From NCBI GenBank assembly GCA_963702565.1, contig CAVPDE010000011.1, forward strand, positions 40,918 to 104,917: a stretch of DNA of 64,000 bases, read 5' to 3'. Each line of letters starts with the position of its first letter. Positions within the stretch are counted from its first letter, which is position 1. Under the pieces are notes generated by a model, which saw nothing but the letters and a program-made list of their open reading frames with translations, had not been told where the DNA came from and did not search any database. The position numbers were made by a program, and so were the translations under genes. This document shows positions 5,250 through 63,912 of the stretch, in pieces. This DNA comes from an uncultured delta proteobacterium (lineage in GTDB: Bacteria > Desulfobacterota > DSM-4660 > Desulfatiglandales > HGW-15).

Positions 5250-5325
5250 TGGCAGTCCCAAGGGGAATCGAACCCCTGTCTTCGCCGTGAGAGGGCGATA
5301 TCCTAGACCGCTAGACGATGGGACC
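5250..5325 (-). tRNA. tRNA-Glu (anticodon CTC), CCA encoded
   Basis: The reverse complement reads GGTCCCATCGTCTAGCGGTCTAGGATATCGCCCTCTCACGGCGAAGACAGGGGTTCGATTCCCCTTGGGACTGCCA. The cloverleaf folds, with anticodon stem TCGCC/GGCGA, loop CTCTCAC and T-loop GGTTCGATTCC. Confidence 0.9.
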
Positions 5326-5329
5326 GTTT

Positions 5330-5403
5330 TGGCTGGGGGAGAAGGATTCGAACCCTCGTAAACGGGGCCAGAACCCGTTGTCCTGCCGCTGAACGATCCC
5401 CCA
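5330..5403 (-). tRNA. tRNA-Gln (anticodon CTG), CCA encoded
   Basis: The reverse complement reads TGGGGGATCGTTCAGCGGCAGGACAACGGGTTCTGGCCCCGTTTACGAGGGTTCGAATCCTTCTCCCCCAGCCA. Acceptor TGGGGGA/TCCCCCA, anticodon stem ACGGG/CCCGT, loop TTCTGGC. Confidence 0.9.
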
Positions 5404-6869: not shown

Positions 6870-9461
6870 TCAATGCTCCTTGAGAACCAGGGCAGGGGAA
6901 GACTTCACTACGAGGCGGACAGCCGGAAGAGCCGCAACAAGGGCAGTTCCCAGAATGAGCGGCAGGGAAACAAGAAGCGCTTTCCAGTCCACCACATACA
7001 GGAAGGTCCAACCGAAGGACTGCAAGTTGATCACGTCAATCAGCAGGTGGGCCATGAGGAAGCCGCATACCAGCCCGACAGTTTCACCTGTGACCACCAT
7101 GAGAACCGCTTCCCAGAAAATCATGGAGCGGATCTGTCCGGATCCTGCGCCGATCGCTGCCAGTGTGTTCAGTTGCCGGATTCTTTCCAGGACAAGAACC
7201 GTGAGCGTGGTCGTGATGCCGAGCCCTGCAACGACAAGGGCGATCAGAAGCAGTACCGTGGTCACGGCAAAGGTTTGATCAAAGACCTCCAGGATTTCCT
7301 TCCTCAGTTCTACTCCCCCAATCATTTCGATAGGGTGCTCCCTGGCACAGCACCTGAGAACCTCGGCACGGAGGCGATCCGTGGCTTCCTTCAGATCCTT
7401 GGGAGGCTTGCTGAAAAAGAATCGCGCCCCGCTCCACGCCATGTCCCCGGTGACGGCCTGGAAGCGGGAAAGATCCGCATAGACAATACCGCCTCGGGTC
7501 CTGTAATCCCGAAAGACTCCCAGGATCGGAAGGTCAAGGGAGCCGGCTCCTAGTCCCACCTGGAAGCGCTGACCTCTGCCGAGGCCGGTCTGGTTCGTGA
7601 AGACCTCGGACACAAGCACCCCGTTTCCTCTAATGAGGTCAGCCGTGATCGCTCCCATGTCTCCATGCAACAAAAGGAAGTGAGCGTGACGGAGAAGGGA
7701 ATCAAAAGGAACCGCTTCGAACTCGAAGGGAACTTTTCCAAGACGGAGTTCAAGATGCCTGTAGGGCATAATCTCCGCGCCCTGGATCTGCTTGAGCCCT
7801 TCCACAGCCTTGGAAGGAAGAGGATCCTGGTAGAGATTAATTCCGGCCATCTTCGGCCGAAGGAAGAAATCGCCTGCCAGGGTTTGGTAGACCCACATGG
7901 AGACCGTGTGCCTGAAGCTGTGAACCATGATGACAAGAGCGACAAACAGAGCCATGGCAGTGACCAGGGCGCCCACGGAGATGGCGGTGCGGTTTCCTGC
8001 ATCGCGCATGTATCTTGCCGCAAGGAAGGCCGGCTCTCCGGCAATGCGACGAAGGAGAAACGGGAGTGAAGAGCCGATCCACCGAAGCACAGGCGTGCAG
8101 AGGAGAGAGAAGCCGATAACCAGGCAGAGGATAGACACGTACCCGGCCACAGGAAACCCCGGAAGCCCGGGCAGGTTTGCGAGGGGCCAGGAAAGTCCGA
8201 TCAGCATAAGCCCGAGAATAGGCCAGCGATAATCGCCTTGTGTCACCCCTGCGGCGGATTCATGGGTCATCATGGCTTCACGCGGCGCTATGCGGGTTGC
8301 CAGGAGGGCGGGTCTGGAAGCTGCAGCGCAAGCCACGAAAAGGGTGACACAGAAGGAGAGGAGGATCTCCCAGGGATCCAGAACCAGGTTCTCTACCCGG
8401 ACCCTCACAAACAGGTTGGTGATCGTACTGCTCACTCCCTGCACCAGGTAGTTGACGAGAAATGAGCCGATCGGGATGGCCATGAACCACCCCAGGAGCC
8501 CCAGAAGCAAACCCTCGCAGAGAACGATAGCAAAAATCATCCGGGAGGAAGCCCCTAGAGAGCGCAAAACAGACAGTTCTCGTCGCTGTGAGGCGGCGTT
8601 GAGAGAAACAAGACTGTACACCAGGAACATGCCTACAAAGAGAGAGACGAAGCTGAGCATGGACAGGTTGAGCTGATACGCGTGGATCATGTTCTGTCCT
8701 GATTCCCTGGTCTCGACCGGAGCCTCGAGACGGACGCTTGGGGGAAGAAGGGTCCGGAGATTGTCCAGGTCGTGCGGGGTTGCTCCGGCCTTGAGGCGAA
8801 GATCAATGCGGTCCACCCAGCCCTGTAAGCCGGTGAACTCCTGCATAGTGGCCAGATCCGCGATGGCCACATACCCTCCTTCGACCAGAGAGAGGCCATA
8901 TTCCTCCAGAATGCCGACGACCGTGAACTGAGAGATCTGGTTCACGTGCTCGAGGGTCACCGTTTGACCCGGGCCGAGACCCAGTTGACGGGCAAGGCGG
9001 TGGCTCAAGAGAAGGGTGTTGGGCGAAGTCACAACCTGGAGCCAGATGCGGGAGATATCGCCTGAAGACGACGCTATTTGCCAGGACCGGAGAGGGAAAT
9101 CCAGGATGGGATCAAGGCCGACCATGAGAAAAGGTTCTTCGTCCCGGCCGGCCATCGTGACATAGCTGGAAATGAGAGGCGAAGCCGTTTCCACCGCAGC
9201 ATGGGACCAAAGCGCTGCAACCAGATCCTCCTGGACCCGGCCGCCGGATCGCACCACGGTGCTGTCTGCGTGACCGCTCAGGAGATCAAAGGTTCTGGTG
9301 AAGGAATCCATGGAGGCGTCCACAGCGAGACGCACACTGGTGAACACCGCGGCACCGAGCGCAATACCCAATATCACCGCGAGAACACGCCAGGGATGAG
9401 TGAGCAGATGACGCCAGCTGAATCCCTTCAGGAGGCGGAGGAAAAAGATCAATCGTCGCAT
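6870..9461 (-). CDS. ABC transporter permease with duplicated FtsX-like domains (MacB/AttFG type)
   Basis: About 860 aa with two FtsX-type 4-TM blocks. The start was moved to ATG 9459-9461, which overlaps the upstream stop (TGATG). Confidence 0.9.
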
Positions 9462-10213: not shown

Positions 10214-11188
10214 TCAAGATTGACCGACCACTTTCCAGCACCGCACCCTGTGGTCATCCCCTACGGGATAGAACTTGATTTCTTCAATCCTGCAGCGATT
10301 TTCGACCAGAGGACATCTTCCCTGGAACTTGCAACCGGGCGGGGGATTGAAGGGGCTCGGCACATCCCCTGCAAGCTCTACAACCTCCAGAGAGCTTTCC
10401 TTTCCAGGAGCGGGCACAGCCGAGAGGAGCGCGAGGGTGTAAGGGTGAAGCGGTCGGTCGAACAATTCTTCAGTGGGTGCATACTCCATGATGTGACCGA
10501 GATACATGACGGCGACCCTGTCACTGATGTAGCTCACGACATGGAGGTCGTGGGAGATGAAAAGGTAACTGAGCCCAAGACGGCTCTGGAGTTCCTTGAG
10601 CAGGTTGATGATTTGGGCTTGGATGGAAACGTCCAGGGCTGAGACCGGTTCGTCGCAAATGATGAGTGAAGGCTCTACGCTGAGCGCCCTCGCAATGCCA
10701 ATCCTCTGCCTCTGACCGCCGCTGAACTCATGGGGATAACGATCCGCGGCAGAAGGAGCCATACCCACCATGTTTAGAAGGTTTTCGACCCGCATCCTTC
10801 GTTCAGCGCGATTCCCGACCCTTATCGTTCTCCGCCCCTCCTCGATCGACTGGCCGACTGTCATCCTGGGATTCAGGGAGCCGAAGGGGTCCTGGAAGAT
10901 GATCTGCATCTCTTTTCTGAGAGGCAACACTTCTTTTTGAGAGAGAGGGGCAATGTCGCGGCCTTTGTAAAAGATAGTCCCTTGATCGGGCTCCAGGAGC
11001 CTCAGGATAAGTCTGCCGATCGTCGATTTCCCGCACCCGCTTTCTCCGACCAGACCGAGGGTCTTGCCCTGATCGATGGCGAAATCAACGCCGTCCACGG
11101 CTTTGACCCAGCCGATGACCTTTTGCAGAAAACCTCGGCGAACGGGGAAATATTTTCGGAGACCTCCGACTTTGAGCATGATGGTCAT
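10214..11188 (-). CDS. Oligopeptide/dipeptide ABC transporter ATP-binding protein (OppF/DppF-type)
   Basis: GESGCGKST, FSGGQRQR, and the C-terminal oligopeptide-transporter extension (HPYT...C..RC). Confidence 0.9.
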   Translation of the reverse strand: MTIMLKVGGLRKYFPVRRGFLQKVIGWVKAVDGVDFAIDQGKTLGLVGESGCGKSTIGRLILRLLEPDQGTIFYKGRDIAPLSQKEVLPLRKEMQIIFQDPFGSLNPRMTVGQSIEEGRRTIRVGNRAERRMRVENLLNMVGMAPSAADRYPHEFSGGQRQRIGIARALSVEPSLIICDEPVSALDVSIQAQIINLLKELQSRLGLSYLFISHDLHVVSYISDRVAVMYLGHIMEYAPTEELFDRPLHPYTLALLSAVPAPGKESSLEVVELAGDVPSPFNPPPGCKFQGRCPLVENRCRIEEIKFYPVGDDHRVRCWKVVGQS

Positions 11189-11345
11189 TAGAAAGTGCCT
11201 AAAGTGAGCTAAAGTGTCTAAAGTTGAAACCCTAAAACCGTAAACACGAAAGCGCGAAAGTAGGAAAGCACGAAAGAAGAGGGGAGTTCTATTGAAAACA
11301 GGTCATTCCTTTTCGTGTTTTCGACCTTTCGTGTCTTTGTGGTTG
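11189..11345. repeat. Composite spacer element: CTAAAGTG-unit array (11194-11224) plus an NNNGAAAG / CTTTCGTG inverted-array hairpin (11245-11342)
   Basis: AGTGCCTAAAGTGAGCTAAAGTGTCTAAAGTT, then CACGAAAG CGCGAAAG TAGGAAAG CACGAAAG, a ~25-nt centre, then CTTTTCGTG TTTTCGAC CTTTCGTG TCTTTGTG. The right arm overlaps the last 13 codons and the stop of the upstream ATPase gene. Confidence 0.85.
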
Positions 11346-12322
11346 TCCCTTCTCGCATAAAGGACGGGACAGCGGCTCAAGTGGCCGTCGCCATAATCGC
11401 AAAGGTCCGGAAACTCGATGCGACATGTTTCTCTCGCGTATGCGCACCGGGGATGAAAAGGACACCCTGGGGGCCTGAAAGCCGCATCCGGCACAGTTCC
11501 CGGAATGCTATGCAGAGTCCCGCCCCTCTTGGAGCGATGAGGAAGGGAAGCGAGGAGTCCCATGGTATAGGGATGACGAGCGTCTCCGAAAATCGTTGCT
11601 GTTGCCCCCTGCTCCGCGATTAATCCCGCATACATGACGTAAATTCGGTCGGCAATGTTGGACACCACGTTCAGATCATGGGTGATGTAGAGCAGCGACA
11701 TGCCGCGCTTTTTTTGAAGTCTTGCGAAGAGATTGAGAATCTGCCGCTGAATGGTTACGTCGAGAGCTGTTGTCGGTTCATCGGCGATGACGAGATCCGG
11801 ATTGCATGCCAGGGCCATGGCGATCATGACTCTTTGTCGCTGGCCACCGCTCAATTGATGCGGGTAGTCGTTGATCCTCTCCTCAGGAGAAGGGATGCCC
11901 ACATCGCGCAAAAGCTGTAAACACCTCTCCTGAAGCTCCGCTTTTCCCATGTGCTCATGCACGAGAATCGCCTCTTTGATCTGATCACCAACCGTGAAGA
12001 CCGGATTGAGGGAAGTCATAGGTTCCTGGAAAACCATGGCAATGCGGCTTCCCCGGATCTTCTGCATTTCCTCTTCCCCGAGTTCTAACAGGTTTCTGCC
12101 ATGAAAGAGGATCTTGCCGCCGGCGATTTCGCCGGGAGGCCGGGGAATGAGGCCGAGAATCGTGAGGGCTGAGACGGTCTTGCCGCAACCCGACTCACCG
12201 ACGAGGCATACCGTCTCTCCCTTGCGGATGTCATAGCTCACTCCGTCCAGGGCGTGAGCCAAGGTCTCATCGCCCCGGAAGTGGACCTTCAGATCCTGAA
12301 CGGATAATAAGAGGTCTTTCAT
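11303..12322 (-). CDS. Oligopeptide/dipeptide ABC transporter ATP-binding protein (OppD/DppD-type)
   Basis: [17 protein letters not shown] and HPYT. The basic C-terminal tail [13 protein letters not shown] is encoded by the repeat arm. Confidence 0.9.
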
Positions 12323-12323
12323 T

Positions 12324-12364
12324 AGTGCCTAAAGTGTCTAAAGTGAGCTAAAGTGTCTAAAGTT
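12324..12364. repeat. CTAAAGTG-unit array (4 units), left inverted repeat of the 4HB cassette
   Basis: AGTGCCTAAAGTG TCTAAAGTG AGCTAAAGTG TCTAAAGTT. It abuts the ATG of the OppD-type gene. Confidence 0.85.
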
Positions 12365-12387
12365 ATAAAAACAAGAACCAGAAGAGC

Positions 12388-12741
12388 CTATCCAGCTTTC
12401 CCAATGGAAGTGAAAATTGCTAAGAGCTCGCTGCACTCATCGTGGTCAGCCTTCAGTTCCCCCCAAGGGATCCAACCTGTCTCTTTGATGACTTCCAGCC
12501 AATACTGTGTTTCGCTAGCCTCAGTCTCACATATGGAAATCCTATTCTTGAAATCAGCCCTGCTTCTTGCTCTATTTGCTTCACGGTAATTTGCCCCGAT
12601 TGATGTACCGGACCTGGTCATTTGGTTCTTGACGACTCTACCCTCTGGTGTGTTGGGTAGACGTGTTGACAGCCGAATAATCCGGACGCCGAACAGAAGC
12701 GTTCGACGCTCCAATTCCTTTGCGAATTCCTTATTCTTCAT
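12388..12741 (-). CDS. Four-helix-bundle protein (23S rRNA intervening-sequence protein / S23p family, Avd-related)
   Basis: 117 aa. SGTSIGANYREANRARSRADF and ETQYWLE are characteristic of this family. It is inserted between the permease and ATPase genes of the peptide ABC operon. Confidence 0.8.
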   Translation of the reverse strand: MKNKEFAKELERRTLLFGVRIIRLSTRLPNTPEGRVVKNQMTRSGTSIGANYREANRARSRADFKNRISICETEASETQYWLEVIKETGWIPWGELKADHDECSELLAIFTSIGKAG

Positions 12742-12755
12742 GTTTTGACCTTCAA

Positions 12756-12829
12756 TTTTAGCTCACTTTAGCCTCCGGCCTGTAGGGCCTACGGCCCGGA
12801 GGGACACTTTAGTTCACTTTAGGCACTTC
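12756..12829. repeat. Reverse-oriented CACTTTAG units split by a GC-rich hairpin, right inverted repeat of the 4HB cassette
   Basis: TTTTAGCTCACTTTAG (12756-12771), the GC hairpin CCTCCGGCCTGTAGGGCCTACGGCCCGGAGG, then ACACTTTAGTTCACTTTAGGCACTT (12804-12828). Confidence 0.85.
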
Positions 12830-13996
12830 TCAGTATCTTTCCCTCAGCTTCGGATTCAGAATGTCCCGCAAGCCTTCACCAAAGAGGTTGAAGGACAGGA
12901 CGACGATGAGAATGGCAAACCCGGGCACAAAGGTCAGCCACGGCGCATCGAAGATGAACCTCTTTCCATCGGATAGAATGTTGCCCCACGTCGCGTGGGG
13001 CGGCGGAACTCCGAAACCGAGAAAACTCAATCCAGCCTCGGTCAAAATCGCTCCTGCAATGCCGATGGTGGCGGAAACGAGGACAGGCGCGATTGCATTG
13101 GGAATCATGTGGCGGAAGATAATCCGCAGATCATTGACGCCCAGGGCCCTCGCAGCAGTGACAAAGTCCTGTTCCCTCAGGGAGAGAAATTCAGCCCGGA
13201 CAAAACGAGCTGTCCCTTCCCAGCTGGTGAGGCCAATGACGATCATGATGTTGTAGATGCTCGGTGGAAGCAGCGCGACCACGGTGAGGATCAGGAAGAA
13301 ACTGGGGAAGCAGAGCATGATGTCCACAAATCGCATGATCAGGGTGTCCACGGAAAAGGTTCCCGCAAAAAGAAAGCGGATCCACGGGTACCGGTGGAAA
13401 GTCCTATTTCTTGATAGGGCCACAAGGGCTAATGCAACAAAACACAGGATCACTCCGACAGGCAGATTTCCTGCGGCCAGGAATCCGCCTCCAATGAGGA
13501 GGAAGAAAGAGGCGAGCACGTGGTATACCCTGACAGGCCTTTCACCGTAATACCCTGAGAGGCCACCCATGAGGATTCCGACGAGTACAGAGATTCCTAC
13601 GGCAACGAAACCGACAGTCAAAGAAACCCAAGCCCCCTGGAGCATCCTTGCGAACACATCGCGACCCAGTTCATCGGTGCCAAAGAGATAAATTCCCAAC
13701 GCAGGAATTTCCTCCGGCCGCAGAACCGCTGCGATCGGGTTTGAAAGGGGAGGCCTCAACTTCTCAGGAAGGCGCACGAGCGATGGATCGATGGCAGGTT
13801 TTGTGCCCGATGTCAGCCACACCCCTGCGAGAGCGATGAGAAAGAAAAGAACAAAGATCAAGAATCCAGCCAAAGCGAGCTTGTTCTTCTTCAGCAGCCG
13901 CCAAGCTTCTTCCCAGCGCGAACGCCGAGGCATAAGAGGAGCTTCAGGGACAGAAGTTGTTTGAGGCGTGTTTTCGATCATGACGGTGAGCACCAA
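12830..13996 (-). CDS. Peptide ABC transporter permease (OppC/DppC-type)
   Basis: Binding-protein-dependent transport inner-membrane motif (EAARALG-like: TAARALGVNDLRIIFRHMIPN). The start is uncertain: TTG 13996 or ATG 13981. Confidence 0.9.
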   Translation of the reverse strand: MVLTVMIENTPQTTSVPEAPLMPRRSRWEEAWRLLKKNKLALAGFLIFVLFFLIALAGVWLTSGTKPAIDPSLVRLPEKLRPPLSNPIAAVLRPEEIPALGIYLFGTDELGRDVFARMLQGAWVSLTVGFVAVGISVLVGILMGGLSGYYGERPVRVYHVLASFFLLIGGGFLAAGNLPVGVILCFVALALVALSRNRTFHRYPWIRFLFAGTFSVDTLIMRFVDIMLCFPSFFLILTVVALLPPSIYNIMIVIGLTSWEGTARFVRAEFLSLREQDFVTAARALGVNDLRIIFRHMIPNAIAPVLVSATIGIAGAILTEAGLSFLGFGVPPPHATWGNILSDGKRFIFDAPWLTFVPGFAILIVVLSFNLFGEGLRDILNPKLRERY

Positions 13997-14011
13997 ACAT
14001 CAAGATGCAAC

Positions 14012-14135
14012 CATGAAAGCGCGAAAAGCAGAAAGCACGAAAGAAGAAGAGGGTTCTGCTGACAAAAGGTCATTCTTTTTCGTGCTTTTATCCTTTCGTG
14101 TTTTCGTGGTTCTCTTCTTGGCATTTTAGGCATTT
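14012..14135. repeat. Second copy of the NNNGAAAG / CTTTCGTG inverted-array hairpin (14012-14109) plus a degenerate reverse CATTTTAGGCA unit
   Basis: CATGAAAG CGCGAAAAG CAGAAAG CACGAAAG ... CTTTTTCGTG CTTTTATC CTTTCGTG TTTTCGTG. It aligns over its full length with 11245-11342, roughly four-fifths identical by eye. Confidence 0.85.
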
Positions 14136-15095
14136 CTACAGTCTTATCCTCGGGTCAACGACGAGATACAGAACATCCGAGATGAAAGTCCCGATAAGTA
14201 CCAGCACTGCCGAGATGAAGTTTACGGTCAGGATCACAGGATAATCCCTTGCAAGAATCGCCTCATAAGCCATCCGCCCCAGTCCGGGCCAGGAGAAAAT
14301 GGATTCGATGATGACTGAGCCTCCGATCAACCCGGGCAGGACAAGACCAAACATGGTGACAAAGGGCAAAAGGGCATTGCGAAGAGCGTGCTTGTAATGA
14401 ACCTGCTCTGCAGGGAGGCCTTTTGCCTTGGCCGTTCTCACATAGTCCTGACCCTCCACCTCGAGCATCTGCCCGCGCACATAGCGGGTGAGCACGGCAA
14501 TGCCGCCTACAGCACCCAGAACGGACGGCAGGAGCAAATGCCAGATCCGGTCCATGACCATTCGAACCCAGGACGTATCCCCCAAGCCGAAGGTCTCCAT
14601 GCCTATGACGGGGACTTGGAAGCGATTCACTACAATAATGATGAGAATGTAAGCAAAAAAGAATCCGGGAATAGAAATGAGGAGGTAAGAAAGAAAAGTC
14701 GTAGACCGGTCGTAAATCCCTCCTCTGTGAATGGCCGCACGGATCCCGATGGGGAAGGAAAGAGTCCATGTGAGAATGGTCCCGACAATGAAGAGGGGAA
14801 GACTGTTCAGAAATCGTTCCCAGATCTTGGTCAGTACAGGCTGGTTGTCTTTCCAGGATACCGTTCTGCCTGTAACAAGATCTCTGTGGTAGTAGAGATA
14901 TTGGATGTGGAGGGGTTTGTCGAGGTGGAAGGCTTTGCGGAAACGTTCCACGATCTCAGGAGTGAAGCGGGGGTTGAGAGGGTCTACCTGGCTCGGTTTG
15001 CCGGGCGCGAGATACACAATGAGAAAAGAGACGATGGAAACGAAGAAGAGGGTGACGATCTTCTGGATGATGCTTCTGCCGATGAAAGAAAGCAT
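14136..15095 (-). CDS. Peptide ABC transporter permease (OppB/DppB-type)
   Basis: 319 aa, six TM segments, and the YVRTAKAKGL motif typical of OppB/DppB. Confidence 0.9.
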   Translation of the reverse strand: MLSFIGRSIIQKIVTLFFVSIVSFLIVYLAPGKPSQVDPLNPRFTPEIVERFRKAFHLDKPLHIQYLYYHRDLVTGRTVSWKDNQPVLTKIWERFLNSLPLFIVGTILTWTLSFPIGIRAAIHRGGIYDRSTTFLSYLLISIPGFFFAYILIIIVVNRFQVPVIGMETFGLGDTSWVRMVMDRIWHLLLPSVLGAVGGIAVLTRYVRGQMLEVEGQDYVRTAKAKGLPAEQVHYKHALRNALLPFVTMFGLVLPGLIGGSVIIESIFSWPGLGRMAYEAILARDYPVILTVNFISAVLVLIGTFISDVLYLVVDPRIRL

Positions 15096-15100
15096 AACAA

Positions 15101-15231
15101 ATGCCTAAAGGGAGAAGAAGTGTCTAAAGTGAACTAAAGTGCCTAAAGTTAAAAACCGAGTGACGAGTCAAGCAAACAAGATACAACGGACAACGGACCA
15201 CTGACTGCGGACAACCGACAACGGACAACCT
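15101..15231. repeat. CTAAAGTG-unit array (15101-15150) plus seven direct heptamers ACAACGG-type (15183-15231)
   Basis: ATGCCTAAAGGGAGAAGAAGTGTCTAAAGTGAACTAAAGTGCCTAAAGTT, then ACAACGG ACAACGG ACCACTG ACTGCGG ACAACCG ACAACGG ACAACCT. Confidence 0.85.
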
Positions 15232-15265
15232 GTTAAAAGCTAGAAACCAAAGCTTCCATCTGAAA

Positions 15266-17416
15266 CTAGCCCTCCGGACTGAAGGAGGGCGCTTCCGGCA
15301 ATTTGATCCACCTGTTGAAATAAAAAGTGTAGTTGCCGGTCTTTGTGGGTGTGATCTTTCTGTATGCGACCTTGCCTTGGGAATCCACGTCCTTGATGAC
15401 GATGCGCTTGTCCAGGATGGCGCTCCACTTGCTTACGTAAAGAAACGTGTAGGGTTGCTCAAAGGCGATGATTTCATGAAGCCGATGGCAGAAAGAAGCC
15501 TGACGCTCATGGTCATATTCTTGTCTGATCCTGACAATGAGGTCATCGGCTTCCTGGTTCCTGAAGCCTACAAAATTGAGCTGATAGGGATTGGTCTGGC
15601 TGGAATGCCAGATCTGATAAAGATCCGGCTCAATCCCCATTTGCCAGCCCAAAATCAGCGCATCGAAATCGAACTTGTTGACTCGCTCCTTGATAAAGAC
15701 CGACCATTCAAACACAGCCGTCCGGACGTCGACTCCGATTTGTCTCCAGGCATCCTGAACAATGGTCATCACGGATTTGCGAATGTCATTCCCGCTGTTG
15801 GTAATCAGGGTGAACTGGAGCTTTTTCCCATTTTTCTCCAGCCAGCCTTCCCCATTCTTCCGCCAGCCCGCTTCTTCCAACAGCTTCAAGGCCCCTGCCG
15901 GGTCATAAGGTATGGGTTTCAGATTTTGATTGTAATAGTCCGTCTGCTTCACAAAAGGCCCTGTGATCTTTTCCCCTTGACCATAAAGCACGTACCGGAT
16001 GATCTTGTCCAAATCGACGGCCATGCTCAGGGCGGTTCGCACTCGACGGTCGTCAAAAGGGGCCCGGCGAAGATTATAGCCGATGTAAGAGTAGCCGAAA
16101 GAAAGCCCTGAGAAACTCTGGTACCGAGGATCATGCTCAAGGCGTTCCACCTGATGAGGTTGAACGCCGTATTCATCGGAGGTCCCGGCATAGAACTCCA
16201 TCTCCTGGGTCAGGAGATCGGGGATGACCCGAAATGCATAGCGCTCGTAGTTCGGAGCGCCATCCCAATACTCATTGAAGCGGTCCAGAGTGATGTACTG
16301 ATCGGATTTCCATTCGCGGAATACGAAAGGGCCGCAGCCAATGGGTCGGCGGTTGAACTGGCTATCTCTCATAGAAAACTTCGCGGGATCCGCACCCCGG
16401 CTCAGCGCCTCCTTTTTAAGCGCTTCGGCATTGAGGAGATGCTCGGGAAGGATATCCATGCCCCATGTTCCTATGGCAGGAGAGTAGAGGCGCTTGTAGA
16501 CAATGCGCACCGTCAGAGGATCAAAAACGTCGACCTGCTTGACCGGTTCGTAGTCCGGAACCCGGGGAGACAGGTTCCTGGGATCCATGATGGCTTCGTA
16601 GGTGAATTTCACGTCATCCGCTGTGAAGGGATGGCCGTCGTGAAACTTCACATTCGGTCTCAGACGGAAGAGGATGATAGGGTTGTGCTCAAGGGGGGGG
16701 AGGATTTCCTTTGCCCATGTTTTTAGGTTTTCCTGAGAAGGTTTAACCCTCTCATCCGGATCAGTACTGAGAAACATGTGTGAAGGAAGGGAACTGAAGT
16801 AGCTTTCTCCGAGAAGGCTGGAAAGGTTTACAAAAAGGTCTTGATCGACTTGATGCAGAACCAATTTAATCCTGCAAGGGGCCTGAACACGGATGGTAAT
16901 TTCACTGCCTTCGTCTCCCTCCTTGCCCTTTACAACTCGTTTGGTCTGGAACTCTTGGGGCGGAACAAAGGAAATCTCCTTGATGTTTTCAACTGAGGTT
17001 CGGAGTTTTGCGTTGCTCTGGATACCGCCTGACTTGGCTTGACGGAGCAACCCGATGACCTCATCAGGGCTTGCCTTCCCAAGGCTGGGAATCTCGGCCG
17101 TCTCATTACAGTAAAAGTATGCCTCCTCATAGATCTCCCAAGAGGTTGCAAGACGGCCTCTGAAACGAAGGTCTTGGTCTCGATCAATGAGACGGTCAAA
17201 GACAAGGTTTTCTATGGCGCTGCTGGCACTGTCCGATGAGAGAATCGGGTTCAGGATCGCGGCATCACCGATGGAAGCGGTGATGTATTCCTTGAGACGA
17301 TCCGGGTTCCCCCGGGTTTGGTCTTCGTAGGTAGGCACCCAGAAATAAGACTGGAGCAGAAGAAGGATGAGCAGAAGAGGAGCTAGGATCAAGATTGTAC
17401 GGACGGAGAACCGCAT
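15266..17416 (-). CDS. Peptide ABC transporter substrate-binding protein (family 5, OppA/DppA-like, unusually long at 716 aa)
   Basis: N-terminal signal/anchor LILAPLLLILLLL. The SBP_bac_5 pattern runs throughout (FHDGHPFTADDVKFTY, ITLDRFNEYW). Confidence 0.85.
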   Translation of the reverse strand: MRFSVRTILILAPLLLILLLLQSYFWVPTYEDQTRGNPDRLKEYITASIGDAAILNPILSSDSASSAIENLVFDRLIDRDQDLRFRGRLATSWEIYEEAYFYCNETAEIPSLGKASPDEVIGLLRQAKSGGIQSNAKLRTSVENIKEISFVPPQEFQTKRVVKGKEGDEGSEITIRVQAPCRIKLVLHQVDQDLFVNLSSLLGESYFSSLPSHMFLSTDPDERVKPSQENLKTWAKEILPPLEHNPIILFRLRPNVKFHDGHPFTADDVKFTYEAIMDPRNLSPRVPDYEPVKQVDVFDPLTVRIVYKRLYSPAIGTWGMDILPEHLLNAEALKKEALSRGADPAKFSMRDSQFNRRPIGCGPFVFREWKSDQYITLDRFNEYWDGAPNYERYAFRVIPDLLTQEMEFYAGTSDEYGVQPHQVERLEHDPRYQSFSGLSFGYSYIGYNLRRAPFDDRRVRTALSMAVDLDKIIRYVLYGQGEKITGPFVKQTDYYNQNLKPIPYDPAGALKLLEEAGWRKNGEGWLEKNGKKLQFTLITNSGNDIRKSVMTIVQDAWRQIGVDVRTAVFEWSVFIKERVNKFDFDALILGWQMGIEPDLYQIWHSSQTNPYQLNFVGFRNQEADDLIVRIRQEYDHERQASFCHRLHEIIAFEQPYTFLYVSKWSAILDKRIVIKDVDSQGKVAYRKITPTKTGNYTFYFNRWIKLPEAPSFSPEG

Positions 17417-17420
17417 AAGA

Positions 17421-17680
17421 AGTGCCTAAAGGGAGAAGAAATGTCTAAAGTGCCTAAAATAGAAAACCAAAACCACAACCACGAAAACACGAAACTATGA
17501 AAACACGAAAAAAAGAAATGCCTAAAGTGAGAAAACCAGTGACAAGTGACAAGTAACAAGTGACAAAACGAGCGAAAAATAAGAACAACTAAAAAAGGAC
17601 TACTTGTCACTCGTTACTTGTGACTTAAAGATCAACGGACAACTGACCACTGATAACGGTGAACCGTGAACGATGAGCAG
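17421..17680. repeat. 260-bp composite element upstream of the SBP gene: CTAAAGTG units, a CACGAAAA half-array, a GTGACAA/TTGTCAC hairpin and seven ANAACNG heptamers
   Basis: Modules: 17421-17460 units; 17477-17515 CACGAAAA x3; 17538-17572 AGTGACAAGTGACAAGTAACAAGTGACAA facing 17600-17626 CTACTTGTCACTCGTTACTTGTGACT (about 20 of 22 complementary); 17632-17680 TCAACGG ACAACTG ACCACTG ATAACGG TGAACCG TGAACGA TGAGCAG. Confidence 0.85.
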
Positions 17681-18720: not shown

Positions 18721-18722
18721 GC

Positions 18723-18948
18723 GCCTAAAGGGAGAAGAAGTGTCTAAAGTGAACTACGCGCAGCGCAGGCGCTTGCGCCGCGTGAAGTGCCCAAAGTTGG
18801 AAGAAAGGTAAGAACAACCACGAAAACACGAAAAGAGGAAAGCACGAAAAAAGAAGAGAGGTGGCACGGGCAAGCTGTGCTTGCCCGTGGTATAGAGTAG
18901 TGGACGGGAGGAAGAAAACACGGATAAGCAAGGCTTGTCCGTGCCACC
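18723..18948. repeat. Composite element in the convergent gap: CTAAAGTG units, a GC hairpin, a CACGAAAA half-array and two related 11-bp hairpins
   Basis: Modules: 18723-18755 units; 18756-18785 GC hairpin; 18826-18870 CACGAAAA units; CACGGGCAAGC-TGT-GCTTGCCCGTG (18873-18897); CACGGATAAGC-AAG-GCTTGTCCGTG (18920-18943). Confidence 0.8.
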
Positions 18949-28675: not shown

Positions 28676-30292
28676 TCACCGGGGACTCCAAAGAGGCTGG
28701 TGAAAGTCTTGTTCCATGGGGGGCTGCTTGAGCGGCCATTCGGCCCGTGCCAGAGAAGAAGCCAGCCCAGGGATGACATCGAGAAGTTCACCGGCCAGGA
28801 TGCCGGACTGTCCCATGTCCTCGGAAAGCCGATCGGCAGCCAGCCCGTGAAGGTAGGCCCCGGCAGCAGCAGCTTTGGCCGGGGGCCATCCTCTTGCGAG
28901 AAACCCGCCGATGAGCCCTGTCAGCACATCTCCGGAACCGCCGCTGGAGAGAGCAGGATTCCCTGTGGGGTTGATGTGGATCTGCCCCTCGGGCTCAGCA
29001 ATGACCGTACGAGCCCCCTTCAAGACAAGACAGCACCTATGCTTCTGAGCAAAAGCTTCTGCGACGCCGATTCGATCGGCTTGAACCTCGGAGTTGCTGA
29101 TCCCGGCCAGCCTTGCCATTTCACCAGGGTGAGGGGTCAGGACCACTCGGCCCCTGCACTTGTCCAGGACGCCCAGATCAGAGGAAAGGGCATTCAATCC
29201 GTCCGCGTCAATCACCATGGGTAAAGGGCACCCGGCCACGATTCTCCTCACGAGTAAGCTTGTCTCCGCGTGAGTCGAAAGCCCGGGCCCGATAGCCACC
29301 GCTGTCTTGCCCTTCATAAGTCTGAAGATTTCTTTCTCCGCTTCCAGGGAGAGACTGGATTCCGCAGTCTCGGGCAGGGGGAAGGTCATGGCCTCGGTCA
29401 GCTTGTTTTCCAGAATGGGATTGAGACTTCGAGGGATGCCGAGAGTCACGAGGCCTGCTCCGGCCCTGAGAGCGCCGAGGGAGGTGAGGGTTGCGGCTCC
29501 TGTTTTCCCTGTCGATCCTGCGAGAACGAGCAGGTGACCCCTGTTGCCCTTGTGGATGTCCGGTTTTTCTGAAGCGATGAGATCATGGAAATCCCCGGCT
29601 CCGATCAAACGGTAACGGCCGGGGATTCGTTCGACTACCGCGTCAGGGATTCCGATGTCGATTTGAACCAGTCGGCCCACCAGACCGGCACCCGGGAAAA
29701 CCAGTTGCCCAACCTTGGGGAGACCGAAGGTGATAGTCAGGTCGGCCTGGACAGCGACCCCCATGACCTGCCCGGTGTCGGCATTCAAGCCGGACGGGAT
29801 ATCGATCGCTGTCACGGGTTTGTTCGCCCTGTTGAGGTCGTCTATAACCCGGGCATAGAACCCTCGGACCGATGAATTGAGCCCTGTGCCCAGAAGGCCG
29901 TCGATGATGAAGTCGCAATCTTTAAGCAGGCGCCGCTGCTTTTTCCATTGCGCCTCAGAGGTCACTTCCAGAAGGTCCAGGCCCATCCGCCTGAGGATTT
30001 GGAGATTGATGAGGGCATCCCCCGCTATTTTACTGAATTCCGCAAGAACCAGGACCGTCACCTTGAGCCCGGCTTCGGAGAGAACCCTCGCCATCACGTA
30101 ACCGTCCCCACCGTTGTTCCCTCGACCGCAGAGAATGAGCACTCGGGAATGAGGGGGTGGAGCAAAGTGAGCCAGAAACACCCTGCTGGCTCCCCTGGCA
30201 GCGTTTTCCATGAGGACCACACCGGGGATGCCGATTTCCTCTATCGTGAGGCGGTCCATCTCTTGCATTTCAGAGGCTTTGACCAATCTCAT
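28676..30292 (-). CDS. nnr: Bifunctional NAD(P)H-hydrate repair enzyme (epimerase + ADP-dependent dehydratase)
   Basis: The YjeF-N pattern (GRGNNGGDG) and the YjeF-C carbohydrate-kinase pattern (GGSGDVLTG) are both present. The start was moved to ATG 30290-30292. Confidence 0.9.
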   Translation of the reverse strand: MRLVKASEMQEMDRLTIEEIGIPGVVLMENAARGASRVFLAHFAPPPHSRVLILCGRGNNGGDGYVMARVLSEAGLKVTVLVLAEFSKIAGDALINLQILRRMGLDLLEVTSEAQWKKQRRLLKDCDFIIDGLLGTGLNSSVRGFYARVIDDLNRANKPVTAIDIPSGLNADTGQVMGVAVQADLTITFGLPKVGQLVFPGAGLVGRLVQIDIGIPDAVVERIPGRYRLIGAGDFHDLIASEKPDIHKGNRGHLLVLAGSTGKTGAATLTSLGALRAGAGLVTLGIPRSLNPILENKLTEAMTFPLPETAESSLSLEAEKEIFRLMKGKTAVAIGPGLSTHAETSLLVRRIVAGCPLPMVIDADGLNALSSDLGVLDKCRGRVVLTPHPGEMARLAGISNSEVQADRIGVAEAFAQKHRCCLVLKGARTVIAEPEGQIHINPTGNPALSSGGSGDVLTGLIGGFLARGWPPAKAAAAGAYLHGLAADRLSEDMGQSGILAGELLDVIPGLASSLARAEWPLKQPPMEQDFHQPLWSPR

Positions 30293-30671
30293 CGTTTCCC
30301 TCAAGGACCACCACAGCCATACCGTAGCGGCCTTCATCGGAAAGGCTCAGGTGAAAACGGGTGATCTGTTTTTCACGGCAGATCTCCGAGGATCTGCCCT
30401 GAAGTCTCAGGGCGGGCCGCCCTCCAGGGTGGTGGAAGACCTCAATGTCCCGCCACCGGATCCCTCTCCGCATTCCAAGCCCGATGGCTTTGGAAAAGGC
30501 CTCCTTGGCTGCGAATCGAAGAGCCAAAGGAGAGGCCGGGTACGCTCTTTTGAAGCAAAACTCCGCTTCCTGGTCCGTGAAAACTCTCTTCACGAAACGA
30601 TCTCCCCACCTCTGGAGCACCGTTTCCAGGCGCTGGATATTCACGAGATCAATGCCCACACCAAAGATCAT
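30270..30671 (-). CDS. acpS: Holo-[acyl-carrier-protein] synthase
   Basis: MIFGVGIDLV, FAAKEAFSKA and LSLSDE. Confidence 0.9.
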   Translation of the reverse strand: MIFGVGIDLVNIQRLETVLQRWGDRFVKRVFTDQEAEFCFKRAYPASPLALRFAAKEAFSKAIGLGMRRGIRWRDIEVFHHPGGRPALRLQGRSSEICREKQITRFHLSLSDEGRYGMAVVVLEGNDEIGQSL

Positions 30672-30677
30672 TGAAGA

Positions 30678-30882
30678 AGTGCCTAAAGTGTACTAAAGTG
30701 TCTAAAATGCCTAAAGTTGAAAAAGAGAATACAGAATCAAAAGAATGGAGTGTTGGAGTAGTGGAGTGATGGAGTATTGGGTTTAAACCAGTACTCCAGT
30801 GCTCCAACGCTCCATTACTCCATGCTATTAACAGCAACGGACAACTGACTATTGATCACGGACTCCAGGCAACAAGCAACCT
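30678..30882. repeat. Composite spacer element: CTAAAGTG units, a TGGAGTNN / NNACTCCA inverted arrays hairpin and seven heptamers
   Basis: Modules: 30678-30718 units; 30745-30780 ATGGAGTG TTGGAGTA GTGGAGTG ATGGAGTA TTGG; centre GTTTAAA; 30788-30823 CCAGTACT CCAGTGCT CCAACGCT CCATTACT CCAT; 30834-30882 GCAACGG ACAACTG ACTATTG ATCACGG ACTCCAG GCAACAA GCAACCT. The element ends one nucleotide before the pdxJ stop codon. Confidence 0.85.
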
Positions 30883-35680: not shown

Positions 35681-35782
35681 ACTTAGAATAAAAATTAATA
35701 TTTTAAAATAAAAAACATTATTTTAACTAATTTTATAATATGTCATTAAGTAATAATATAATAGAATTCAATATTATAAATT
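35681..35782. other. ~100-bp extremely AT-rich island in otherwise GC-rich DNA
   Basis: ACTTAGAATAAAAATTAATATTTTAAAATAAAAAACATTATTTTAACTAATTTTATAATATGTCATTAAGTAATAATATAATAGAATTCAATATTATAAATT. By eye it has very few G/C. Confidence 0.9.
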
Positions 35783-35809
35783 CCGCTAGCACAAAAGCAT
35801 GGAGGGTCA

Positions 35810-36449: not shown

Positions 36450-39072
<2,623 letters not shown>

Positions 39073-51018: not shown

Positions 51019-51104
51019 TTGGAGTAATGGAGTACTGGAGTAGTGGAGTGTTGGGAATCGCAGTTCTGTTCACTCCATTACTCCATTACTCCATCATTCC
51101 ATCC
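51019..51104. repeat. TGGAGTNN / NNACTCCA-type inverted arrays (8-nt period)
   Basis: TTGGAGTA ATGGAGTA CTGGAGTA GTGGAGTG TTGGG, a centre, then CACT CCATTACT CCATTACT CCATCATT CCATCC. Confidence 0.85.
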
Positions 51105-52154: not shown

Positions 52155-52264
52155 TAGGAGTATTGAATGCTGGAGTAATGGAGTACTGGAGCGCTGGAGT
52201 AATGGTGGAATAAAGAAAAAGAGGATACCCAGTACTCCAAGACTCCATCACACCATCACTCCAT
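52155..52264. repeat. TGGAGTNN / NNACTCCA-type inverted arrays (third copy)
   Basis: TAGGAGTA TTGAATG CTGGAGTA ATGGAGTA CTGGAGCG CTGGAGTA ATGGTGGA, a centre, then CCCAGTACT CCAAGACT CCATCACA CCATCACT CCAT. Confidence 0.85.
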
Positions 52265-63246: not shown

Positions 63247-63912
63247 CTATATTGAGTATCCTCTTCTTCCGAATTCGATGCCGCTGGCTGCCCGGGAGAA
63301 GAAGAAAAGCACGGAGTGGGAGAGTCTTGTAAAAGGGATCAGGATGAGCATGAGCTCTGCGGAGAGAACATGAAAGAGCCTCATGTTGTCACCGAGAAAC
63401 TTGATGCTGTCCACGGTCCCGTGAGTGAGGAAATAGCCGGTCAGGAAAGGGAGGACCGTCACCACGATGAGGAGGTAATCGCCAGCCGTGGTAAGGAGGC
63501 GGAGATCGGGCAAGAGTGCCCTTCTCAGGATGAAAAAAATGGCGATCGCAAGAAGGAGCAGCGTCATCCAGTCCGCCCATTTATCGGGGATAGAGGACCA
63601 GGACCACCCGAAACGCGATTCTTCCCAAAGGGAGACATGGCCTGCCAGCCAAATGGGCACCACAATGAGGCAGATGTGAAAAAGGTAGACACAGATAATG
63701 AAAACAGGGTTTTTTTTCACTGTCACATTGAGAGGCAGCAGCCACCGGGCCAAGGTGGCGAGAATGTATTTCACGCTGAAATAATTGTAGAGGGGCTTAT
63801 CCTTTGTCCGGGCGACAAAGATGAATTGGGCCATGCGGATCAGTGTTCCCATGATGAAGACAAGAAAGGCGATCCACAATAGGGGTCCTTCTGCGAACGA
63901 GCTCAAGTCCAT
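63247..63912 (-). CDS. NarI-family membrane cytochrome b-like subunit (DsrM/HdrE/HmeC-like)
   Basis: 221 aa with five or six TM helices and conserved His in TM2/TM5 positions (FHICLIV, FHVLSAE). It lies immediately upstream of the DsrK-like gene. Confidence 0.65.
   Translation of the reverse strand: MDLSSFAEGPLLWIAFLVFIMGTLIRMAQFIFVARTKDKPLYNYFSVKYILATLARWLLPLNVTVKKNPVFIICVYLFHICLIVVPIWLAGHVSLWEESRFGWSWSSIPDKWADWMTLLLLAIAIFFILRRALLPDLRLLTTAGDYLLIVVTVLPFLTGYFLTHGTVDSIKFLGDNMRLFHVLSAELMLILIPFTRLSHSVLFFFSRAASGIEFGRRGYSI

Follow-up and report, generated by a model that had tools for sequence, protein, structure and literature searches.

The heptamer arrays of cyanobacteria known as short tandemly repeated repetitive (STRR) sequences lie in intergenic regions and in transcripts, with several families in a genome and no established function. 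A different heptamer, TAACTGA, forms direct repeats in marine Beggiatoaceae and also in Cyanobacteria and Bacteroidetes; these repeats end within a few nucleotides of start codons, the open reading frames (ORFs) that follow lack a Shine–Dalgarno (SD) sequence, and no function is established for them, translational control having been proposed (MacGregor 2015, PMC4679880). Repeats can also enclose genes: the intervening sequences (IVSs) of 23S rRNA, for example in Coxiella, carry an ORF for an S23p/four-helix-bundle protein and form a stem that RNase III cleaves in the rRNA (PMC4990558). Transposable elements of the miniature inverted-repeat type (MITEs) and mosaic repeats such as Correia, ERIC, BIME/REP, BOX, and the Chunjie element of Geobacter (PMC10969869, PMC3184786) can be targets of RNase III or RNase E and can alter expression (PMC10969869). 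Here we describe a tandem repeat in a 64,000-nucleotide stretch of an uncultured delta proteobacterium (GenBank assembly GCA_963702565.1, contig CAVPDE010000011.1, positions 40,918 to 104,917; hereafter the window), where its TTTAGGCAY box stands before the start codons of four genes of an opp-type operon and of acpS.

We find that this box closes the pyrimidine-rich arm of a widespread interspersed repeat, of which it is the last unit, and is neither specific to the five genes nor a dedicated ribosome-binding signal. In the reading that we favor, to which we assign a probability of about 0.6, the arm of this foldback tandem repeat serves as a leader that supports initiation independently of an SD, and, where both arms are present, pairing between them would add translational coupling or processing by RNase III.

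Boxes and arrays in the window

The window contains 11 exact matches to TTTAGGCAY against 0.50 expected, a number reached in 0 of 100 dinucleotide shuffles. All 11 lie outside ORFs of at least 100 amino acids (chance 6e-10). The minus strand, in whose sense the local genes run, has nine of them, and the other two, on the plus strand (12818 and 14125), are inverted copies on either side of oppC. The first-pass annotation had reported that the last unit of an array runs straight into the ATG of five genes, and on a minus-strand reading all five junctions proved exact: oppF (11188), oppD (12322), oppB (15095), oppA (17416), and acpS (30671). Of the window's six sense arrays, five end 6–11 nucleotides upstream of a start codon, an adjacency with a probability of ~1e-8 if sense arrays were placed at random in the 9.3 kb of intergenic DNA. 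That annotation had also cautioned that the association is not absolute, as is borne out by the array at 18721–18755, which lies in the 3' region of ahcY and does not lead into a start codon. In three of the five junctions the TAG of the last unit shares the reading frame of the ATG, a proportion that does not differ from chance. The arrays, the genes, and the elements around them are as follows.

10214–11188, minus strand: oppF (Pfam).
11189–11225, minus strand: oppF array, three CACTTTAG units (AC, CTC, and GC variants) and a CACTTTCTA tail, up to the ATG at 11188.
11232–11343, minus strand: CACGAAA/TTTCGTG hairpin element, its 5' arm within the 3' end of oppD.
11303–12322, minus strand: oppD (Pfam).
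12323–12364, minus strand: oppD array, four units, ending one base before the ATG at 12322; also the 3' arm of a cassette bearing a four-helix-bundle ORF.
12388–12741, minus strand: ORF of 117 amino acids between oppC and oppD, 23S-rRNA-IVS protein/four-helix-bundle (PF05635, 1.3e-18; TIGR02436, 1.4e-23).
12757–12828, minus strand: 5' arm of the cassette, inverted units AGTGCCTAAAGTGAACTAAAGTG from 2 nucleotides past the oppC stop.
12830–13981, minus strand: oppC (Pfam).
13982–14135, minus strand: oppB–oppC spacer, with inverted units of the box, AAATGCCTAAAATGCC, immediately behind the oppB stop and a long CACGAAA...TTTCGTG hairpin after them.
14136–15095, minus strand: oppB (Pfam).
15096–15150, minus strand: oppB array, four units including a CACTTCTTCTCC variant, up to the ATG at 15095.
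15266–17416, minus strand: oppA (Pfam).
17417–17459, minus strand: oppA array, three units, up to the ATG at 17416.
17480–17640, minus strand: modules upstream of oppA, namely three copies of TTTCGTG, a lone box (17518–17526), and a TGTCACT/AGTGACA hairpin.
18721–18798, minus strand: array without a start codon downstream of ahcY, with a degenerate unit at 18786–18798.
30270–30671, minus strand: acpS, downstream of pdxJ; PdxJ and ACPS were assigned from the syntenic pair.
30672–30718, minus strand: acpS array, four units, up to the ATG at 30671.
30745–30822, minus strand: GGAGTAATGGAG.../...CTCCATCACTCC hairpin in the pdxJ–acpS spacer, upstream of the array.

The genes oppF, oppD, oppC, oppB, and oppA make up an opp-type ABC operon as judged by Pfam. 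The start of OppD was set by alignment of eight orthologues, and the N-termini of other products are typical (a signal peptide in OppA, MLSFIGR in OppB, and MIFGVGIDLV in AcpS). By comparison with the gene calls in the relatives' loci L121 and L124, oppC starts at the ATG at 13981 (383 amino acids) and not at the TTG at 13996 given by the ORF lister. This gene has no sense array in front of it; the oppB–oppC spacer folds strongly (−50.8 kcal/mol, z = −4.3). In the 5' arm of the oppC–oppD cassette the AGTGCCTAAAGTGAACTAAAGTG units are followed by a GC-rich hairpin (12772–12804) and then by more inverted units, CTAAAGTGAGCTAAAA. A GC-rich hairpin splits the array downstream of ahcY, which directly adjoins the stop codon of a convergent, plus-strand queuosine-salvage gene.

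At least four other short-tandem-repeat families occupy the same spacers (TTTCGTG/CACGAAA, CCGTTGT, TGTCACT, and GGAGTAA/TTACTCC), at 11232–11343, 14015–14112, 15183–15229, 17480–17640, 18819–18850, 30745–30822, 51020–51102, and 52171–52264. They form hairpins, many of them long, in which the purine-rich arm is always 5' and the pyrimidine-rich arm always 3', and strong hairpins lie just upstream of the arrays. Elsewhere, in the part of the window with the lowest GC content, lies an AT-rich stretch (35683–35783) with 2.2 copies of a 20-nucleotide tandem repeat, TTAAAATAAAAAACAATATT, and a neighboring 15-nucleotide repeat.

A foldback repeat family and its turnover

The box is one variant of a tandem unit of 9 or 10 nucleotides, CACTTTAG followed by N1-2 and C. 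To follow the family beyond the window we scanned one genome per species with a 25-nucleotide array pattern, CTTTAGRCACTTTAGNNCACTTTAG. Arrays were counted in 143 loci of relatives and of array-bearing genomes, which approximates the genome-wide tally proposed in the first-pass annotation, and they were assigned to flanking genes in other genomes by crude gene calling. Arrays contain 2–12 units, spaced by 9 nucleotides in 215 instances and by 10 in 232, and the UUUAG core of the units is invariant. The 25-nucleotide pattern occurs in at least 120 stretches of contigs from metagenome-assembled genomes (MAGs), most of them Desulfobacteraceae/Desulfobacterales. Among the matches listed are also MAGs labeled Planctomycetota, Nitrospirota, Poribacteria, Patescibacteria, ANME-2 archaea, and Bacteroidota, the last being the only one of these labels that was verified. 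In that genome (locus L052) the RecG encoded beside the array has homologues 90–93% identical, of which the named ones all belong to Prolixibacteraceae or Marinilabiliales; thus, spread across phyla is real for at least Bacteroidota. No common neighbor gene was seen beside the arrays among the matches listed. A viral collection (IMG/VR) held six matching stretches on four contigs, and phage are a weak candidate for the vehicle.

Most arrays are half of a larger structure. At least two inverted units (CTAAAG) lie within 200 nucleotides upstream in 125 of 208 arrays (60%), and the full element consists of a purine arm, (GTGCCTAAAGTG)n, a variable centre, and a pyrimidine arm, (CACTTTAGGCAC)n. 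As centre there is a loop, a further hairpin of short repeats, or a small selfish ORF. Often the elements of these genomes occupy an entire spacer from stop codon to start codon. A foldback reads identically on both strands, and hence its pyrimidine arm faces the downstream gene and its purine arm the upstream gene. This polarity accounts for the finding that an ORF of at least 80 amino acids starts no more than 60 nucleotides downstream of 67 of 216 sense arrays as compared with 13 of 216 in the antisense control. It likewise accounts for the inverted units that directly follow the stop codons of oppC and oppB and of other genes: among 122 paired elements the purine arm lies no more than 40 nucleotides past an ORF stop in 40, the pyrimidine arm no more than 40 nucleotides before an ORF start in 32, and both hold in 13. 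The element at 893–1067 of L052 fills a divergent spacer of 175 bp and adjoins the two start codons with its two arms; its 75-bp centre is where the promoters of the two genes would have to sit. The arrays themselves gave no sigma-70 promoter signal: there is one sigma-70-like match in 9.2 kb, versus 4.6 expected, and it is not convincing.

Certain flanks are shared as well. Composite sequences of 150–300 nucleotides surround the array in different MAGs, as in L015, L047, L066, L100, and others, in L002, L075, and L098, and in L014, L037, L039, and L107. They contain a hairpin (GGAGCGAAGCGACWCC), GCGCTGAAAGCGC, CCTGGTCCTCTGGGCCAGG, and an AT-rich TTATATAAAA core, which suggests a modular mosaic element assembled from recurrent building blocks.

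The arrays match no Rfam family, there being no match at gathering scores and only chance-level ones up to an E-value of 1. (The sole Rfam matches in the window are two adjacent tRNA genes at 5253–5403 on the minus strand.) A literature search with the repeat sequence returned unrelated primers only, and one for repeats in Desulfobacteraceae found nothing, so that this interspersed foldback tandem-repeat family is apparently undescribed so far. Familiar categories of repeat also failed to accommodate it. The arrays have no spacers of the kind that would make them CRISPR; their hundreds of dispersed copies speak against plasmid iterons and centromere repeats; tandem arrays common to different phyla do not suit DNA-uptake sequences; and the presence of the same arrays in many independent assemblies argues against an assembly artefact.

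The spacers of orthologous opp operons (OppD 79–97% identical) and of pdxJ–acpS regions (PdxJ 77–93% identical) allowed us to compare the elements in syntenic relatives, in which an array has from zero to eight or more units. The oppF array has three units in the window and two in L121, whose OppD is 97% identical; the oppB array has four units in the window and four, one, or zero in the orthologues; and the oppD array ranges from half a unit in L124 (TAGgcatttATG) to eight or more in L130. In L124 the oppC stop codon is itself the TAG of the box before oppD. The oppA–oppB spacers of the window and L121 are wholly different save for the first 18 nucleotides and the array. Judged from these comparisons, arrays grow and shrink by whole units and centres are exchanged quickly.

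What persists through this turnover is the unit closest to the start codon, which is retained across 77–100% protein identity. It is found before oppD in all eight lineages, including L133, whose operon is compact (TAGgcgCTTTAGgcacttttcATG), and L124 (TAGgcatttATG), and before oppA in all lineages that cover that region. Before oppB, in the form GGCAYTT(N2-5)ATG, it is present in six lineages (the window, L121, L124, L128, L131, and L133), and before acpS in four (the window and L140–L142). The most distant acpS relative, L143, has a spacer of 13 nucleotides in which TAATGGCACATCTCTC directly precedes the ATG.

The variable centres are best seen in the small ORFs of the opp spacers. Such insertions lie at 12323–12829 (minus strand) in the window, at 7443–8000 in L121, and at 8988–9632 in L126. 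At the oppC–oppD site L121 has a GxxExxY gene (PF13366/TIGR04256) in place of the four-helix-bundle ORF. One or two IVS-protein genes occupy the oppC–oppD and/or oppD–oppF spacers of L126, L128, L129, L130, and L131, and L126 in addition retains a remnant of one between oppC and oppD. L124 keeps only an IVS-protein fragment of 56 amino acids, between oppD and oppF, and L133, with its compact spacers, has no small ORFs. As read from the sequences, each of the eight small ORFs of the opp spacers stands between complementary arms of short repeats (CTAAAGTG/CACTTTAG, CACGAAA/TTTCGTG, or AAAGG/CCTTT), and they look like rRNA intervening sequences that have moved into mRNA spacers. A comparison of filled with compact spacers revealed no recognizable target-site duplication, the ends being the repeats themselves. 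The arrays have no general link with IVS-protein genes, of which there are just three in 819 kb of array-bearing loci; the link is limited to the opp operon of this lineage. In one case a repeat reaches into coding sequence: the 5' arm of the CACGAAA hairpin element (11303–11343, minus strand) forms the last 13 codons of oppD, and the resulting C-terminal extension of 13 amino acids is present in the window and in P0001 only, six orthologues being without it.

Initiation at array-preceded start codons

How, then, might the five genes be translated? Pairing with the anti-SD was computed against an assumed canonical 16S tail rather than the host's own, as neither the window nor any of the loci contains a 16S gene. 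The best duplex available to the five array genes is −2.4 kcal/mol and involves AGG only, as compared with a window median of −5 to −6 kcal/mol, which upholds the first-pass claim that these genes have no GGAGG-type SD whereas others in the window do. An SD is expected to pair over at least four consecutive bases with the 16S 3' end (within AGGAGGU), and the array leaders offer only AGG; clear SDs of other window genes are aaaggagg at 36877 and aaggaaggag at 63912. The box may also be complementary to nucleotides 42–49 of 16S rRNA (GUGCCUAA), a possibility on which none of what follows depends.

One of the options raised in the first-pass annotation was that the AGG core of the unit serves as a minimal SD at a distance of 5–10 nucleotides. 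In this reading the functional ribosome-binding site would be the AGG of the last unit, paired with CCU at the 16S 3' end, and the rest of the array would be irrelevant. All five last units in the window are indeed of the GGC variant, the AGG-to-AUG gaps of 5, 8, 8, 9, and 10 nucleotides fall within the range for an SD (~4–13 nucleotides), and AGG is kept at the same spacing before oppB in five lineages and before acpS in four. Before the same genes in relatives, however, it is replaced by TGG (oppD in L121 and L130; acpS in L143), AGT (oppD in L128/L129), AGA (oppD and oppF in L131; oppF in L126), or AGC (oppF in L129), so that orthologous leaders do not conserve the core of the supposed SD. 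Nor is the variant favored at start codons: GGC is the last unit in 16 of 28 arrays next to a start (57%) and in 100 of 188 elsewhere (53%), and arrays that end in TC or AC units abut start codons as well, without any SD. The same arrangement recurs in the Bacteroidota genome represented by L052, and Bacteroidota largely do not use SD pairing. The frequent replacement of AGG and the lack of enrichment of GGC argue against a selected minimal SD, the duplex is just −2.4 kcal/mol, and we strongly doubt this explanation. Where an array ends more than ~15 nucleotides from the start codon, a normal SD usually lies in between, from which it follows that the repeat family need not replace the SD; in L126, oppB has no units and is preceded by a canonical SD, GAGGTGAT.

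The leaders themselves suggest another route. The array leaders occupy the 20–45 nucleotides upstream of the start codon, are poor in G, and have little self-complementarity, and the start regions of the five genes are slightly more unpaired than other starts of the window (0.53 versus 0.45; one-sided P = 0.02, n = 5). We propose that initiation on the array genes would be independent of the SD, with the U/C-rich, unstructured array offering the 30S subunit a place to land, probably by way of ribosomal protein S1, and with AGG adding little; initiation of this sort has been described for genes without an SD in general. Between oppC and oppD the arms may do more. RNAfold predicts, in both the minimum-free-energy and the centroid structures (z = −3.95), that the 5' arm at 12757–12828 pairs with 12323–12364 in a long-range stem of 13 plus ~15 bp that loops out the ORF and has its foot 2 nucleotides past the oppC stop and 1 nucleotide before the oppD AUG. 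Such pairing would make the oppC stop and the oppD start neighbors. On reaching the end of oppC, a ribosome would open the purine arm and so release the box at the oppD AUG, and in this way translational coupling could be kept in spite of the insertion. The arm–arm stem could in addition be a substrate for RNase III, as in the rRNA IVSs (PMC4990558) and in Correia elements (PMC10969869).

Several observations weigh against SD-independent initiation from the arrays. The difference in accessibility is small and comes from five genes only. The oppD–oppF spacer folds no better than shuffled sequence (z = −1.25). About 30% of arrays are within 60 nucleotides of an ORF start, and with only about a third near a start a role in initiation is closed to the majority of copies. 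In other genomes, solo arrays are oriented without bias with respect to their flanking genes (18 versus 17). Concerted evolution of the repeats, or the way in which they insert, could explain in place of selection why the start-proximal unit is retained. The loci examined, among which no systematic search for an autonomous partner was made, showed no transposase, recognizable target-site duplication, or other signature of mobility. Finally, what the analysis shows is the repeat's identity, architecture, distribution, and turnover, the lack of an SD, and the predicted stem; the initiation mechanism, the coupling, and the processing are steps that we infer from sequence and predicted structure.

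Some of these same observations are what one would expect of a repeat that acts purely at the level of DNA, as a selfish or structural element (MITE-like, a foldback, or a site for recombination or protein binding) that does not act in expression, and whose position at start codons would mean merely that other intergenic positions are already filled or that it is tolerated there. Its distribution across phyla, its palindromic architecture, the fast turnover of presence, absence, and cargo, the intrusion of an arm into the coding end of oppD, the unbiased orientation of solo arrays, and the fact that elements adjoin stop codons as often as start codons are all in keeping with this alternative. 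Against it, translation of oppA, oppB, oppD, and acpS has to begin at these junctions all the same, and the start-proximal unit is kept while upstream parts turn over; that no transposase, recognizable target-site duplication, or autonomous partner was seen in the loci examined and that the viral collection holds only six matching stretches also sit poorly with a selfish element. We regard it as possible, if on the unlikely side. We consider it unlikely that the repeats are in essence an RNA-processing module, in which arrays and hairpins lead to the cutting and differential stabilization of segments of polycistronic mRNA, with RNase III acting on the long stems, RNase E cutting at AC↓UUU in each unit, and upstream hairpins shielding 3' ends. 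RNase E prefers RN↓WUU, and the ACUUU of every unit fits this preference, which makes a processing role a live rival and one compatible with the initiation model. Strong hairpins lie directly upstream of the arrays (as in the −50.8 kcal/mol fold, z = −4.3), and the inserted ORF is enclosed in a long predicted stem. In mRNAs, RNase III and RNase E are known to act on Correia and ERIC elements (PMC10969869), and RNase III excises rRNA IVSs whose ORF belongs to this same family (PMC4990558). However, processing of operon mRNA is irrelevant to the many arrays that lie between divergent or convergent genes, and it leaves the flush fit of the array to the start codon unexplained.

The units might instead be a platform for a trans-acting regulator, either a sequence-specific RNA-binding protein (of the S1, cold-shock protein, or RNA recognition motif [RRM] type) or an antisense RNA that controls the translation of a regulon; a translation-control platform was the other option of the first-pass annotation. 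Periodic repeats with an invariant UUUAG core, placed over the ribosome-binding region in leaders slightly less structured than other window starts, with the start-proximal unit kept in orthologues and with inverted copies that could pair in trans, would suit such a platform, and a comparable role has been proposed, as a hypothesis only, for the TAACTGA repeats (PMC4679880). But the downstream genes have no common theme (opp subunits, acpS, recG, tatD-like, mrp-like, and others), most arrays are not beside starts, unit number differs even between near-identical strains, and the solo arrays elsewhere show no preferred orientation (18 versus 17). Moreover, no candidate binder is encoded near the arrays: an RRM-type protein is present only in L143, where it is unlinked to arrays, and a tblastn search with it found nothing else. 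We judge a regulatory platform of this kind to be quite improbable. Equally improbable, in our view, is the most ambitious version of the idea, a portable module for SD-independent initiation and control in which a trans-acting factor (an RNA-binding protein or the ribosome) would recognize CACUUUAG units; this module would have spread horizontally across phyla, unit number would tune the downstream cistron, and the foldback form would admit selfish ORFs into operons while arm pairing preserved coupling.

Comparison with known repeat systems

If the arrays do support initiation, they would constitute a leader that is natural, mobile, free of an SD, and functional in two phyla at least, would bear on how bacterial genes without an SD are translated, and would provide a second, independent case in which the TAACTGA puzzle can be tested. 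If they are only selfish DNA, they add a catalogue entry for a repeat family that we have not found described. In either case the foldback cassettes show small selfish genes living inside essential operons, and they do so for the four-helix-bundle and GxxExxY families, which until now have been tied mainly to rRNA intervening sequences. Because the repeats fill spacers, lengthen reading frames, and displace the SD, they can also mislead gene callers and start prediction in Desulfobacterota MAGs.

As in MITEs and mosaic repeats, the elements are small, mostly non-coding, multi-copy, intergenic, and co-transcribed with genes, with inverted repeats at the ends of a short non-coding core that in some copies gives way to a small ORF. 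Chunjie, too, can sit in operons without breaking them, and the modularity is like that of BOX and BIME. The arms, however, are tandem arrays of 9–10-nucleotide units in variable number rather than unique terminal inverted repeats, and they are flush with start and stop codons. Nor do they resemble REP/BIME sequences, which are imperfect palindromes of ~35 bp with a GTAG head and an associated RAYT; the tandem units have no GTAG head. With the rRNA IVSs the cassettes share complementary ends that form a stem, predicted in the present case, around an optional PF05635 ORF. They differ in that their host is the spacer of an operon mRNA and not helix 25 or 45 of 23S rRNA (the window contains no rRNA), and in that their arms are tandem short repeats common to hundreds of copies without an ORF. 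For MITEs and mosaic repeats as well as for rRNA IVSs, at least one defining trait was not found in this repeat family. The cyanobacterial STRR arrays differ from it in unit length, sequence, and phylum, and a relation to start codons is not one of their defining features.

The TAACTGA repeats of Beggiatoaceae come closest as a precedent. In both families short direct repeats stand in tandem between genes, with copy numbers of 2–6 and downstream genes that have no common function, and both have a distribution across phyla that points to horizontal spread, though by no vehicle that is evident. Like TAACTGA repeats, five of the window's six sense arrays face forward and end a few nucleotides from a start codon, and here too the downstream ORFs mostly lack an SD. 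The two nevertheless differ in their unit, which is not a heptamer here but 9–10 nucleotides (CACTTTAG N1-2 C), and in their hosts, which here are Desulfobacterota and other sediment anaerobes. Above all, 60% of the arrays described here have an inverted partner, as against one inverted set among 170 in the Beggiatoa genome (PMC4679880), and the resulting elements carry small ORFs and sit inside operons.

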